Of a stretch of DNA of 32,000 nt, positions 3-18,939 are shown piece by piece. The stretch covers positions 30,001-62,000 of the forward strand of contig JBHLRO010000007.1 in NCBI GenBank assembly GCA_048882505.1, in the 5' to 3' direction. The position numbers and the translations under genes are program-made. The notes below the pieces were generated by a model, which made no database searches, was not told the origin of the DNA, and saw only the letters and a list, made by a program, of their open reading frames with translations. Each line of letters begins with the position of its first letter. Position 1 is the stretch's first letter. This stretch comes from Candidatus Thorarchaeota archaeon (lineage in GTDB: Archaea > Asgardarchaeota > Heimdallarchaeia > Hodarchaeales > Hodarchaeaceae).

Positions 3-1088
3 CTCGTTGCCGTTATAGGTTTCCTACTAGGCTGGCTTCTTACCCTCTACCTCAGTCTGCCAAGTCTTATCACCTTAATATTGGGTGGAATAGGTTACGT
101 TATTGGTCTCTTTTTAGATCACGCGGATACCCAAAACCAGATATCTACATTTCATTTTACAAGTTTGAAAGGTAATATCCAAGCATATCCCCTGCAAGAT
201 TCTCGTATCCATTATTCACCCATTGAAAACGTTACCAAGGTCTTGTTATACTTTGAGGTCAAGCGAAAGCCTGAAAACTTTCGTTTGGGGGTTCTCAAGA
301 ATTTTGCTGATTTCGAGTACAGCATTTCGGAAGATGATTCCCGCACTCTTCTCACCGTGTTTCTGGAGTACCCCGAGTACAACTATCTCCGAGAACAAGG
401 AAGCCGCCGTCACGAGCGATTCCTGTTCGATATTGAGCAGAAGGGTACAGAGTTCATAGCGGCGGTTGATAAGATCATACCTGGGACCATTTTACGACGG
501 ATACATTACCCAACTCAACAAGGGGATGCCGAAGATTGGCACAGTAATAGGAGTTCACATAGTGATCGCCCTTCTTCTGGTTCGGGAATTCCCCCAGCAG
601 AACCTGGATATTCTTTTCCTCCTACCGATGCCCGTCTAGTAACTAACCCACCAACGCATTTGAATAATCTAGTTTCCGTCATGGCCGAACCTGAAATTCA
701 ACCAGAAATGCCGCCTTCTAATCATCCCACCCCGAAATCTGTAAATGAATCCATGATTATGGATGACCTTCTCGGGGATCGATCCACCCCGACACTTCCT
801 CCTGAAGAGATCGCGAACCTTCAAGATTCAAATGCCCGAGCGTTAGAGGCCTTTTTGAATGAGGAACTAAATCAAAACCAAGTCAGTGAAGATAGCGAAG
901 ACAGTGCTACTCCTCAAAAACCTGAAATGGGAGATCTGTCTCTCCCACATCCGAACAACATGGAAATATCTTCTGAAATTGCTGAAGAAGCAACAAACCC
1001 TCCAAAGGACTCGAAACTATCTACATTCGACAAACAGATTATTGACAGGATCGCTGGATTTCCCAATCGCCCCCAGCCAGACGACTAA
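3..1088 (+). CDS. Membrane-anchored protein, 5'-truncated: TM helices, an alpha/beta domain and a long Pro/Ser/Glu-rich disordered tail
   Basis: The frame is open from position 3 (LVAVIGFLLGWLLTLYLSLPSLITLILGGIGYVIGLFLD, two hydrophobic segments), so the gene starts before the window and not at TTG 81. It ends at TAA 1088. The C-terminal half is low-complexity and acidic/Pro-rich. Confidence 0.75.
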   Translation, partial: LVAVIGFLLGWLLTLYLSLPSLITLILGGIGYVIGLFLDHADTQNQISTFHFTSLKGNIQAYPLQDSRIHYSPIENVTKVLLYFEVKRKPENFRLGVLKNFADFEYSISEDDSRTLLTVFLEYPEYNYLREQGSRRHERFLFDIEQKGTEFIAAVDKIIPGTILRRIHYPTQQGDAEDWHSNRSSHSDRPSSGSGIPPAEPGYSFPPTDARLVTNPPTHLNNLVSVMAEPEIQPEMPPSNHPTPKSVNESMIMDDLLGDRSTPTLPPEEIANLQDSNARALEAFLNEELNQNQVSEDSEDSATPQKPEMGDLSLPHPNNMEISSEIAEEATNPPKDSKLSTFDKQIIDRIAGFPNRPQPDD

Positions 1089-1090
1089 CC

Positions 1091-1594
1091 TCAATCTTGA
1101 CGAGTATTATTACATTTCAAACATTGGAGAACTCCATTGATGAAAAACTGGAGTTTGAAACACCTAGAGCAAAACATGAATGGATGATTCCACTCTTTGA
1201 TTTGACTATTTTTTTCCCCCATAATAAGACGAAAAAGCGATTCCTTTTCATACCGAGATAGAGGGGCCTTTGCAAGCTGCCAAAGCGCTTCCTGGGTCTT
1301 CCCGACTCGAAGAAGACTTTCAATCGTCATACGCATAATAGTAATATCAGTAGTAGGGAGAAGAGGGTATAAATACTTAAGTGCGGATCTTGAACTACCC
1401 TTGGCTAAATATAATTTAGCCAATTTAAAGTCTACCGCAGTTCGGAGAGAAGGAGCGGTTCTATACAGGTATTGAAGCATTTCTAGAGCTTTATCCCATT
1501 CTGCTGTGTCAATATATTGATCAGCTAGGTTAAAGAACTCTGCTTTCTTCTTATCTGTCTCATTGGCCACTTGAGTTTTTCGACGAGGAGACAT
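1091..1594 (-). CDS. TPR-like helical repeat protein with a C-terminal CxxC...CxxC zinc ribbon
   Basis: TPR-like helices (AEWDKALEMLQYLY, FKLAKLYLAKGSSRSALKYL, VGKTQEALWQL) precede FCSRCF...LQCLKC. A GGTGA SD-like site favours ATG 1594 over GTG 1600. Confidence 0.75.
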   Translation of the reverse strand: MSPRRKTQVANETDKKKAEFFNLADQYIDTAEWDKALEMLQYLYRTAPSLRTAVDFKLAKLYLAKGSSRSALKYLYPLLPTTDITIMRMTIESLLRVGKTQEALWQLAKAPLSRYEKESLFRLIMGEKNSQIKEWNHPFMFCSRCFKLQFFINGVLQCLKCNNTRQD

Positions 1595-17118: not shown

Positions 17119-17124
17119 AACACC

Positions 17125-18939
17125 ATGTTGGGTTCCAATCGAGAGTCATTCGGATTATCTCCTGCTCTCCAACTGTTTCCCCATAAAGAACTGCGAAAAT
17201 ACCAGACTCAGTTTCTTCGTTTTGTTGAAAAGCATCCTCGGGTTATGATCCACGCGCCTGTGGGTTTTGGAAAGACTATTATGGCGTTAATTAGTACTCT
17301 TCCCCTGGTTAGAGACAAGAACTTTCAGTTATACATTTTTGTTCGTACGAAAGCTCAGGTGTTCAATGTCTTTCTTAAACAGATATTTAAAATTGCCAAC
17401 AGTCGAAAGTATGGTTATCTAACTGCAGTTCCACTGATCCTTAAAGCCGATCTTTGCCTGAAACGTGACCGAATTCCAGTCTTTTACCGCGGGGTCTGTG
17501 GCCGAATCCGTTGTCCTCTTCTAGAACAGACGCAATCAATCCCCGCGGAAGATTTTCCGGCTATTGTAGAACAAATCCCTATTACGGGACATACAAATGA
17601 TAACACTCCCATTTCTGCCGAGACATTTAAGGAGGCGTTTCGAGAGTTTGGATGTCCCTATTATGTGATCCAACAAAGCATCCCACATGCCAATATTGTG
17701 GTCACAACCCATACCTACCTCAGGAGTAAGAACCTCCAAGAATCGTTTGCTCCACTCCTTAGTAGGGGCCCGTTTTCCTCCAAAATTGCGATAATTGATG
17801 AGGCTCATAATTTTACTGCAGATGTGGAAACAGAACTTACTAAATACGAGGTAGAAAAGACTAGAAAAATAATTTCACTCAAAACTCTCGACCTTTTACT
17901 TTCTTTAATCGAAGAGCAACAAGGCCGCGTGGAACGACCTCGCTCATTAAATCCAGCTCAATTAGATGCTTACCTGGAAACTGAAGAAGAATTATCTCTT
18001 GCAGAACGACTTGAAGTGCTCAAAATTCAAGAATTCCTGTCGGCGCGTGGGGATGTATGGATTTCGGAGGAGGATCGACTGGTTCAACTAAATCCTTTTC
18101 CTACTCATGTCTTTCGTTTCATCAATCAACACTTTCAGAGAGTAATCCTTATGTCAGGGACTTTAACACCCCTGGCGGCGTATCAAACATTATACGGTAC
18201 CAAATATCCTTCATTATCTATCCCCTCTAACTTCCAGTTTGCACTAAATGGTCTCCTATATCATAGGAATTTCACATCAAAATTTACTGAACGGGGGCCG
18301 CATACCTACAAAGCTATGGCTAAGGTGATAGAACGCCTACATGAGGGCAATCCGTACCATACTGTGGTGTTTGCCCCCTCTCATGATTTTAAAGAGAAAA
18401 TATTGGCCCAAATAGGTGTCCAAGATGTATATGTGGAGACTCCAGGCAGTCACCCTTATTTTATTTCGGAGCTACAGACGAAACGTCATGCACTAGTTCT
18501 CAGTGTCTTAGGAGGTAAGCTGTCGGAGGGTATTGAAGTTTTGCATCCTGAAACCAAACGGAGCCTTCTTACTCTCATCTGTATTGCAGGGATGGCATTC
18601 CCCAGACCGAATGCAACTACTTTACTCCTCCAAGACCTGTACCGTAAGAGATGGGGCCATAGAGTCGCCAAACACTTAGGATTACTGCCTGTTACCCAAG
18701 GTATCGCTCAAGCCATCGGTCGGGGAATTCGATCGGAGTCAGATTTTGCCGCCAGCCTGATCTTAGACTACAGAGCGGCTCGATATCGGAGCCTGCTACC
18801 AGCCACCCGCATTTTTCGTGATCTTCCCAGTTTATATGCCGCGTATGACCTTTTCTTCGTTCGAATGCGAAAAATGTTCCAGTTACCATTCCAGGAACCG
18901 AGATCTCACAACGAACAGTCTCCAGATCAAGAAATGTAA
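17125..18939 (+). CDS. xpd: XPD/Rad3-family Fe-S DNA helicase with intact motifs
   Basis: Q-motif RKYQ, APVGFGKT, four Fe-S Cys (LCLK, VC, RCP, GCPYY), IIDEAHN, MSGTL, GGKLSEGI and QAIGRGIR...D.R. Confidence 0.9.
   Translation: MLGSNRESFGLSPALQLFPHKELRKYQTQFLRFVEKHPRVMIHAPVGFGKTIMALISTLPLVRDKNFQLYIFVRTKAQVFNVFLKQIFKIANSRKYGYLTAVPLILKADLCLKRDRIPVFYRGVCGRIRCPLLEQTQSIPAEDFPAIVEQIPITGHTNDNTPISAETFKEAFREFGCPYYVIQQSIPHANIVVTTHTYLRSKNLQESFAPLLSRGPFSSKIAIIDEAHNFTADVETELTKYEVEKTRKIISLKTLDLLLSLIEEQQGRVERPRSLNPAQLDAYLETEEELSLAERLEVLKIQEFLSARGDVWISEEDRLVQLNPFPTHVFRFINQHFQRVILMSGTLTPLAAYQTLYGTKYPSLSIPSNFQFALNGLLYHRNFTSKFTERGPHTYKAMAKVIERLHEGNPYHTVVFAPSHDFKEKILAQIGVQDVYVETPGSHPYFISELQTKRHALVLSVLGGKLSEGIEVLHPETKRSLLTLICIAGMAFPRPNATTLLLQDLYRKRWGHRVAKHLGLLPVTQGIAQAIGRGIRSESDFAASLILDYRAARYRSLLPATRIFRDLPSLYAAYDLFFVRMRKMFQLPFQEPRSHNEQSPDQEM

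Follow-up and report, generated by a model that had tools for sequence, protein, structure and literature searches.

A RadA paralogue, XPD and candidate pseudoenzymes share a conserved gene neighbourhood with envelope genes in Heimdallarchaeia

We analysed a 32,000-nucleotide stretch of contig JBHLRO010000007.1 (hereafter the window) from a Hodarchaeales metagenome-assembled genome (MAG), GCA_048882505.1. This 4.3-Mb, 83-contig source genome is labelled G000 here, and the window is G000:C7:30001-62000. At window positions 3-18939 the open reading frame (ORF) listing gives 15 tightly packed genes, g01-g15, in which a RadA paralogue, an XPD-family helicase and candidate pseudoenzymes of DNA repair stand beside membrane and surface proteins. 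The genes run as g01 (plus strand), g02-g03 (minus), g04-g07 (plus), g08-g12 (minus, in the order g12 to g08) and g13-g15 (plus), with neighbouring genes inside a run overlapping by up to 35 bp or lying up to 30 bp apart. Gaps measure 4 bp (g04/g05), 23 bp (g05/g06), 0 bp (g06/g07), 30 bp (g13/g14) and 6 bp (g14/g15); overlaps measure 29 bp (g08/g09), 1 bp (g09/g10), 35 bp (g10/g11) and 4 bp (g11/g12). Two intergenic regions are divergent: promoter region 1 at 2126-2196, between g03 and g04, and promoter region 2 at 13288-13464, between g12 and g13. An initial annotation of this DNA had described tightly coupled gene runs around two divergent promoters, and the ORF map and spacing bear this out. 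GC content is even over the locus, at 0.41-0.45, and falls only in the right flank.

For comparison, about 0.5 Mb was fetched around orthologues in more than 20 species of the source genus, with protein identities of roughly 20-70%, lowest for g06 and g09. Families are labelled f1-f5: the source genus belongs to f1, genome G023 to f2, G024 and G028 to f3, and G033 to f4. G016, the sister species and closest relative of G000, served as the comparison genome for the ratio of non-synonymous to synonymous substitution (dN/dS). The MAG assemblies are fragmented, and some apparent gene absences are contig breaks.

Gene g13 (13465..14502, plus strand), here called RadA-X, encodes an apparently catalytically intact RadA paralogue with an N-terminal HhH domain. 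It matches the Pfam families Rad51 (8e-66) and HHH_5 (8e-13), its Walker A and B motifs are intact (GENGCGKT and LIIVD), and L1 and L2 are conserved in the alignment. Against NF003301 it scores 330 bits (cut-off 259), where two canonical RadAs encoded elsewhere in the genome score 450 and 441; against TIGR02236 its 315 bits fall under the 361-bit cut-off. The position of the FxxA polymerisation motif reads L-K-K-G in g13 itself and L-K-[KP]-G across g13 and all its orthologues; the canonical RadA paralogues of the same genome carry F-ETA and F-ISA there. The protein also lacks a ~10-aa insert of canonical RadA, and its PDB matches are RadA/Rad51 at 1e-73, with RAD51B/C/D and XRCC3 at only ~1e-15. 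G000 holds four RadA-like genes including g13, the two canonical RadAs lying on other contigs; all of them are kept across the genus, which has at least four RadA paralogue lineages. On these comparisons the window RadA is a lineage-specific paralogue, not the housekeeping recombinase. The motif-intact RadA, RadB-like ATPase and XPD of the initial annotation do have intact motifs, but this RadA is not the organism's main recombinase, two canonical RadAs being encoded elsewhere. In a RadA tree, the cluster-linked paralogues of f1 and f2 group together with support of 100/98. RadA duplication in Heimdallarchaeia has been reported, without synteny or context analysis (PMC12722695). The other RadA-like genes of G000 lie at C15:48665-49699, C2:354329-355411 and C11:46589-47569 (L047, L048 and L049) and comprise the two near-equally canonical copies (450 and 441 bits) and a fourth, divergent paralogue.

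The last gene of the same run, g15 (17125..18939, plus strand), is a putative XPD/Rad3-family 5'-3' helicase with intact motifs. It carries the Pfam domains DEAD_2 and Helicase_C_2, the motifs GFGKT and DEAH, and four cysteines (C110/C125/C130/C177), and it matches archaeal XPD in the PDB at 1.4e-33. Because its TIGR00604 score of 114.6 bits is under the 247-bit cut-off, we regard it as a divergent XPD member. It is the sole ~600-aa XPD-type match in G000 and in most genomes of the genus.

Between these two genes lies g14 (14533..17118, plus strand), a HerA/VirB4-fold protein followed by a C-terminal helical region, in which the P-loop is replaced by G[ST]xNxE; we refer to it as pseudo-HerA. 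It has no match in Pfam or NCBIfam. An AlphaFold2 (AF2) model built from 16 orthologues reached a moderate predicted local distance difference test (pLDDT) score of 68, and in a Foldseek search of the PDB its top 45 matches were all HerA or VirB4, led by HerA 8zis (1.6e-9) and followed by 4d2i and VirB4 8rtd; the model also matches HerA/TraD clusters in AFDB, in line with a HerA-type fold (HAS barrel plus RecA-like core). G[ST]xNxE stands at the P-loop position in every g14 orthologue, with GG/GS-x in distant members, and relatives as distant as 17-21% identity have no GK[ST] there either. With T-H-A-x-E at the Walker B site, the protein departs from both the Walker A (GxxxxGK[ST]) and the Walker B (hhhhDE) consensus. 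A profile search of 1.84 billion proteins yielded only 53 representatives of the family, all named members of which are Asgard and mostly Heimdallarchaeia, and pseudo-HerA looks like a new, Asgard-specific protein family on this sequence evidence. Elsewhere, G000 encodes eight ordinary DUF87/HerA genes. Compared with the sister species (L002, G016:C101), the synonymous divergence (dS) of g14 is 0.29 in its first 150 codons and saturated from about codon 200, in a setting where neighbouring genes have dS of 0.2-0.5 and the XPD gene g15 has 0.70. This pattern suggests that the 3' part of g14 was replaced by a divergent allele, leaving a recombination mosaic between G000 and G016.

Further candidate pseudoenzymes lie in the g04-g07 run. 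Gene g05 (2474..3934, plus strand; 486 aa), or pseudo-Hef, encodes a FANCM/Hef-type protein whose helicase motifs I, II and VI are destroyed. It matches NF010337 (Hef) at 1.1e-17 with 63 bits, against a cut-off of 610 bits; the canonical Hef encoded elsewhere in G000 scores 656 bits. Aligned to that canonical Hef, g05 and all its genus orthologues show xSxExxLIR and [DN][HQ]AE and have no arginine finger. Most orthologues are ~635 aa long and retain an ERCC4-like domain without catalytic residues (GDxnERKxxxD); the 486-aa proteins of G000 and G016 end before this domain. All named relatives in a protein search come from Hodarchaeales, Heimdallarchaeota or Promethearchaeota MAGs, and many further matches are unnamed. 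The next gene, g06 (3958..4698, plus strand), is predicted to encode a Cas4/AddB-like Fe-S protein without nuclease catalytic residues. Its matches are PDDEXK_1 (4e-4), PADLOC Cas4 (8e-5), PDB 4r5q (0.013) and TIGR00372 (3e-4; 20.5 bits against a 65-bit cut-off). Four cysteines, C6, C229, C232 and C238, are invariant (C...CxxCx5C) and QxxxY is kept as QAAIY, but the catalytic D...(D/E)xK is lost, its positions reading GRPS (S) and IQ[ST]. Five dead homologues had been proposed initially. The Hef-like, the weakly homologous Cas4-like and the HerA-like proteins indeed lack catalytic motifs in all orthologues, but the other two proposals, a second RecA fold (g09) and a zincin-like protein (presumably g07), were not confirmed.

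Two putatively active DNA-processing proteins accompany this set. Gene g03 (1616..2125, minus strand), which the initial annotation did not flag, encodes a PD-(D/E)xK nuclease-fold protein of Mrr/MmcB/Hjc-like type. Residues D51, E66 and E68 are invariant, and its AF2 model (pLDDT 77) matches 3dnx best in a Foldseek search of the PDB (2.3e-5), then the nuclease domains of NucS, Hjc, Cas4 and Card1; the AFDB matches are MmcB/Mrr/Holliday-junction-resolvase clusters. Homologues occur in the clusters of f3 (36% identity), f2 and GCA_046759345.1. Just left of the window, at G000:C7:27093-29900 (L051:17093-19900), lies a gene for a 935-aa MrfA/Hrq1-like helicase with motif-intact DEAD and Helicase_C domains, an Hrq1 winged-helix domain and an MrfA Zn-binding domain. 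It adjoins g14 or g01 in four other species, and because it travels with these genes, the cluster extends beyond g01-g15.

The minus-strand run g12 to g08 is an envelope operon. Its first gene, g12 (8491..13287), encodes a 1598-aa Ig-repeat surface protein with an N-terminal hydrophobic segment, a C-terminal transmembrane (TM) anchor and matches to Big_13, Big_3_3 and PKD. It is followed by g11 (7919..8494), a YdjM/DUF457-like protein with 4 TM segments (PF04307 at 1.3e-4, under the cut-off), and g10 (6841..7953), a bitopic protein with N- and C-terminal TM segments around a beta-rich ectodomain; g10 and g11 are each present in 16 genus loci. Opposite the end of this run stands g07 (4699..5598, plus strand), a ~6-TM membrane protein with invariant PFRxxHVxxHV (HxxxH), DENP and H176. 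The membrane proteins and the 1598-aa Ig-repeat protein of the initial annotation thus stand, given the TM segments of g07, g10 and g11 and the Ig matches of g12. The C-terminus of g07 (LEDLDL tail) carries an acidic motif, F/L-x-[LM]-E-D-L-D-[LIY], that is kept across the genus and, by its sequence, could be a short linear motif on which a cytoplasmic partner docks.

The operon ends in genes for two small proteins that may work as a pair. Gene g08 (5650..6384, minus strand), its last gene, encodes a probable RadB-like/Rad51-superfamily small ATPase with an intact P-loop: it matches TIGR02237 at 7e-15, residues G45, G48, G50, K51 and D131 are invariant, and its profile matches RadA (2.9e-12), RAD51D (3e-9), KaiC (1e-7) and RadB (3e-7) in the PDB. 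Its predicted partner is g09 (6356..6841, minus strand), a small alpha/beta protein without a P-loop. In complex prediction, a check proposed with the initial annotation, one neighbouring pair, g08-g09, passed, with an ipSAE of 0.79 against 0.01 for the best control. Among reference pairs, 58 of 80 solved complexes and 2 of 110 mismatched pairs came up to this mark, counts that hold only roughly here because g08 and g09 were folded from orthologue alignments of our own. The partners have pLDDT values of 76 or more, at least 81% of contacts agree between runs, and in the model a beta-strand of g09 receives the N-terminal strand of g08. Wherever both genes were recovered in a genus locus, they stand next to each other. 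The prediction supports, and does not prove, binding between g08 and g09.

Across the genus, the block g08-g12, divergent from g13-(g14)-g15, occurs in essentially all genomes sampled. Gene g12, whose orthologues share 40-88% identity, divergently adjoins the RadA paralogue in 16 of the 17 genomes that have that paralogue, and in all 11 genus loci from which that part was recovered, g08 belongs to the surface-protein operon. Other members are more mobile: g14 is gone from the RadA-XPD operon in about half of the genomes, where it sits with g07 and/or the MrfA-like helicase; the g04-g05 pair flanks the cluster on one side or the other; and the position of g06 also varies. Of 28 genus loci, 6-18 contain any given gene of g04-g15 and none contains any of the 12 genes that follow XPD on the right; genes further left turn up only rarely. 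Because g04-g15 recur and the right-flank genes do not, clustering has been kept through rearrangement while the flanks turned over. A 1964-aa frame in G015 that would fuse RadA to the Ig protein was set aside as an artefact, since it crosses a stretch of Ns (a scaffold gap) and its RadA belongs to a different paralogue clade. G015 is listed as a single contig, in which runs of Ns join unrelated segments (L057, G015:C1:2965000-2984999), and long frames across such joins are artefacts.

Selection has maintained these genes. In comparison with G016, dN/dS lies between 0.07 and 0.42 for all genes, lowest for g07 (0.066) and 0.42 for g09. The pseudoenzymes fall within this range, at 0.14 for g05, 0.28 for g06 and 0.10 for g14, and are not frameshifted in the genomes examined. 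Two of the checks that the initial annotation had named came out in its favour: the neighbourhood is kept across the genus, with its core kept across the class Heimdallarchaeia, and the dead homologues are under purifying selection (dN/dS 0.10-0.28) rather than decaying by frameshift.

The same data bear on whether these genes form an anti-virus or anti-plasmid defence island of HerA-like, Cas4-like, DinG/XPD-like and helicase components. Proteins of HerA, Cas4 and DinG type are common in defence systems, and g15 matches the PADLOC type IV-A DinG model at 5.9e-58, but PADLOC recovered no complete system, only generic Cas4, DinG and mad8 family matches. The genes are single-copy and vertically inherited, conserved at order to class level and under purifying selection; a patchy, island-like distribution was looked for and not seen, and composition is uniform over the locus. 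The XPD-type match of the source genome is single, as it is in most genus genomes, and the HerA-like and Cas4-like proteins are without catalytic residues. We therefore consider a defence island very improbable.

Beyond the genus, g12, g14 and the g13-type RadA share one phyletic pattern: they occur in 20 of 21 f1 genomes (16 of 21 for the RadA orthologue) and in both f2 genomes, and were not found in 17 genomes of three other families. In f2, pseudo-HerA adjoins XPD, with g03 nearby in G023. More distant operons, with pseudo-HerA at 17-21% identity, consist of RadA, pseudo-HerA, a g03-like nuclease and XPD in GCA_046759345.1, and of RadA, pseudo-HerA and XPD, with a Hef-type helicase nearby, in GCA_054014235.1. 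A YdjM gene stands divergently beside a pseudo-HerA paralogue in Heimdallarchaeota B3_Heim.

Family f3 holds a differently ordered array. In G028, ~32 kb of co-directional repair and surface-protein genes begin with a pseudo-Hef whose motifs are visibly dead (95.7% probability in hhalign), a RadA paralogue, membrane proteins and a 2121-aa Ig giant; continue with a small RecA-like ATPase, the g03 homologue (36% identity), a 1051-aa protein and a DEAD/SWIM helicase; and end with a bitopic beta-rich protein, a 2646-aa TSP3 giant and a convergent XPD. The membrane/ATPase/nuclease/helicase block is kept in G024, from another f3 genus, where pseudo-Hef stands directly before XPD. BLAST of g07 and g08 against their positional counterparts in G028 was not significant, and by sequence comparison the f3 array is analogous in composition, with orthology confined to the RadA paralogue, pseudo-Hef, g03 and XPD. 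In G024, an IS605 OrfB/Cas12f-like TnpB gene lies between the RadA paralogue and the remaining f3 cluster (L096:6368-7630, G024:C44).

At the genomic level, coupling to envelope genes is genuine in two families, and it has to be weighed against a rival account. On that account the locus holds two unrelated units, a repair set and an ordinary envelope operon that share a bidirectional promoter, and g08 is a KaiC/ArlH-type regulator unrelated to DNA. The profile of g08 does match KaiC/DnaB-type P-loops as well, yet the g08 family profile ranks RadA, DMC1 and RAD51D above KaiC. Divergent pairs are hard to split by rearrangement, so that adjacency alone is weak evidence, and the envelope link is documented only in f1 (and f2) and f3; against this, RadA-X/Ig adjacency has been kept in 16 of 17 genomes while g14, g05, g06 and g07 moved, and the same interleaving arose in f3 in a different gene order. 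Taken with both sets of points, we hold the two-unit account to be quite unlikely.

The opposite possibility is that the envelope genes are part of the machinery. On this view a membrane-anchored machine, functionally analogous to the Sulfolobales Ups/Ced systems, would serve cell contact, DNA exchange and recombination; it would use the Ig giant for adhesion, g07, g10, g11 and pseudo-HerA as a DNA conduit, and XPD, RadA-X and the RadB-like pair to process incoming DNA. Several observations fit: every genus locus with that part shows translational coupling of the RecA-family ATPase pair to surface and membrane genes; in f3, one co-directional array mixes membrane proteins with Ig/TSP3 giants, a RecA-like ATPase, a nuclease and helicases, and the membrane/ATPase/nuclease/helicase block within it is kept in two genera; the 6-TM g07 sits beside pseudo-HerA when g14 moves, which resembles the CedA/CedB arrangement; the YdjM-like gene stands beside the pseudo-HerA paralogue in B3_Heim; and g14 is a recombination mosaic between two species. 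However, the HerA/VirB4-fold protein is without the P-loop lysine family-wide and thus cannot be a translocation motor, and Pfam and NCBIfam scans revealed no pilin, PilB/PilC-type or ComEC-like protein and no other recognisable channel. The distant RadA/pseudo-HerA/XPD operons (L100 and L102) have no adjacent Ig giant in the DNA available, and no orthology is detectable between the Ig giants of f1 and those of f3. We consider such a machine unlikely. Cell contact and DNA import of Ups/Ced type, as the initial annotation had envisaged, are not supported by these data: the sole HerA/VirB4-type protein of the locus is P-loop-less throughout its family, and no pilin, secretion ATPase or recognisable DNA channel appeared in the Pfam scans. 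The still more specific proposal, that a membrane-anchored apparatus couples surface adhesion proteins to a recombinase paralogue, helicases and pseudoenzyme scaffolds as a new system of intercell DNA exchange and recombination, seems doubtful to us; if true, it would foreshadow sex-like genome mixing in prokaryotes, by a mechanism other than those of Ups/Ced, conjugation and natural transformation.

We favour another reading, and judge it somewhat probable: the locus is a vertically inherited, Heimdallarchaeia-specific neighbourhood encoding a multi-subunit DNA-repair/recombination module. Gene content, motif states, folds, synteny and purifying selection are the direct observations behind it. 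The DNA-side parts, read through what is known of their families and through gene association, suggest roles in recombination and in processing DNA that is damaged or branched; we infer that the products may form one complex that acts on damaged DNA, in which the envelope proteins may have some role. The ancient core operon consists of RadA-X, the P-loop-less HerA-fold protein, in some genomes the PD-(D/E)xK nuclease, and XPD; around it are arranged pseudo-Hef, the Fe-S Cas4-like pseudo-nuclease, the MrfA/Hrq1-like helicase and the RadB-like ATPase with its small partner. By analogy with FANCM-FAAP24 and Rad51-paralogue complexes, the pseudoenzymes might be DNA-structure-binding scaffolds that recruit the active engines (XPD, the MrfA-like helicase and the nuclease) to stalled forks, crosslinks and breaks, and that load or regulate RadA-X. 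Because the FxxA self-polymerisation motif is absent from its sequence, RadA-X more probably serves as a mediator than as the main filament former. The genes of the module are, in Hodarchaeales, coupled genomically to the envelope operon (Ig giant, YdjM-like and bitopic beta-rich proteins), which ends in the RadB-like pair. A full-text search of the literature found no description of this cluster.

Several observations weigh against the repair-module reading or narrow it. The full cluster is not universal in the class. A universal cluster had seemed possible from the 25-30-kb spacing between the RadA paralogue and XPD in f3-f5, but G033, of f4, has MFS, TldD/PmbA, thioredoxin, KaiC and RFC-like genes between the two; because this interval is filled with housekeeping genes, the cluster cannot be called universal. 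The cluster-linked RadAs of f1 and f2 are sister to the XPD-linked paralogues of f3 and f4 only weakly (80/80). Because g15 is the sole ~600-aa XPD-type match in most genus genomes, its presence may reflect a housekeeping rather than a dedicated role. Homology of g06 to Cas4 is weak (E values of 1e-2 to 1e-4), the fold of g09 comes only from a low-confidence alpha/beta Atlas model, Atlas search leads for g10 were weak (0.77) and gave no usable fold assignment, and g07 has no family match that would indicate its fold.

The promoters add little. Promoter region 1 carries TTATATAGTAGAAA and promoter region 2 carries TTAAATAGTAGAAA on the minus strand; the 14-mer TTAWATAGTAGAAA has two occurrences in the 4.3-Mb genome, both in this locus. 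As a point against the same reading, the motif common to both promoters is kept only in the closest relative, G016. The shared 16-bp motif was accordingly rejected as a regulon marker: it is present in G000 and G016 and absent from the orthologous RadA-Ig promoters of 14 other loci. In four other species with both promoters comparable, no shared motif stood clearly above shuffled controls, the one in G007 being marginal (15 bp, where shuffling reached 14 at most). We treat the shared promoter motif as weak evidence, judged on sequence.

The remaining genes are peripheral members or neighbours. Gene g04 (2197..2469, plus strand) encodes a 90-aa Cys-containing protein and always stands directly upstream of pseudo-Hef (six loci). 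At the left edge, g01 (3..1088, plus strand) encodes a membrane-anchored protein with 2 N-terminal TM segments and a long Pro/acidic low-complexity tail (dN/dS 0.32), whose orthologues adjoin the cluster only in G009 and G016, and g02 (1091..1600, minus strand) encodes a small helical/TPR-like protein with weak TPR matches only, found only in the G009 and G016 loci. Further left, at G000:C7:19413-19952 (L051:9413-9952), is a gene for a small Ras/Roc/Arf-family GTPase (PF00071, 3e-41), with homologues near g14 in the loci of three other species (L033, L040 and L046). To the right, window positions 22907-24237 encode an Hcp domain (type VI secretion tube protein; PF05638, 5.8e-37) in this archaeal genome, followed after 20 bp by an uncharacterised 233-aa ORF; the window has no other type VI secretion system genes. 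On the minus strand at 28133-31101 lies a gene pair for a LuxC-like acyl-CoA reductase and a LuxE/AMP-binding-like protein, and a second, partial LuxC copy (88% identity) is found at the end of contig C14.

Several known systems resemble the locus in part. The Mre11-Rad50-HerA-NurA operon of archaeal end resection likewise joins a HerA-fold ring protein with recombination, upstream of RadA strand exchange; here, however, the HerA-fold protein is without the Walker A lysine, the locus is without NurA, Mre11 and Rad50, and the partners are a RadA paralogue, XPD and a PD-(D/E)xK nuclease. The domains of the left-flank helicase and the structural neighbours of g03 recall bacterial MrfA (a DEXH helicase with an MZB domain) and MmcB-type PD-(D/E)xK endonucleases, a likeness at the level of family and fold only; here the two belong to an archaeal cluster of far greater size, and an MrfB-type exonuclease was not identified. 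With the Sulfolobales Ups/Ced systems the locus shares membrane and surface genes accompanied by a HerA/VirB4-fold protein and recombination, including a multi-TM gene beside the HerA-fold gene in several genomes. It differs in having no active VirB4/HerA ATPase and, in Pfam scans, no type IV pilin or assembly ATPase; no CedA homologue turned up, although no search was aimed at CedA.

The nearest parallel in design is eukaryotic. Eukaryotic genome maintenance leans heavily on inactive paralogues, among them the Rad51 paralogues, the FANCM pseudo-nuclease with FAAP24, and ERCC1, and Heimdallarchaeia are the closest known archaeal relatives of eukaryotes. The locus shows the same inactive-paralogue design in Hodarchaeales and other Heimdallarchaeia, with dead Hef, HerA and Cas4-like proteins and an extra RadA without the polymerisation motif, alongside XPD. 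This protein set lets one ask whether mediator and scaffold complexes predate eukaryogenesis and which partners archaeal XPD works with; the physical linkage to giant surface proteins would be remarkable if functional. RadA-X is far from RAD51B/C/D and XRCC3, and the likeness, drawn beside trees of non-eukaryotic sequences, is one of design. FANCM is an active translocase, whereas the helicase motifs of pseudo-Hef are dead too. As in FANCM, most pseudo-Hef orthologues keep a degenerate ERCC4 domain; as in FANCM-FAAP24 and the Rad51-paralogue complexes (BCDX2, CX3, Rad55-Rad57 and Shu), inactive helicase, nuclease and RecA-fold paralogues are under selection beside active recombinases; and a small RecA-like ATPase (g08) is predicted to pair with a P-loop-less partner (g09).

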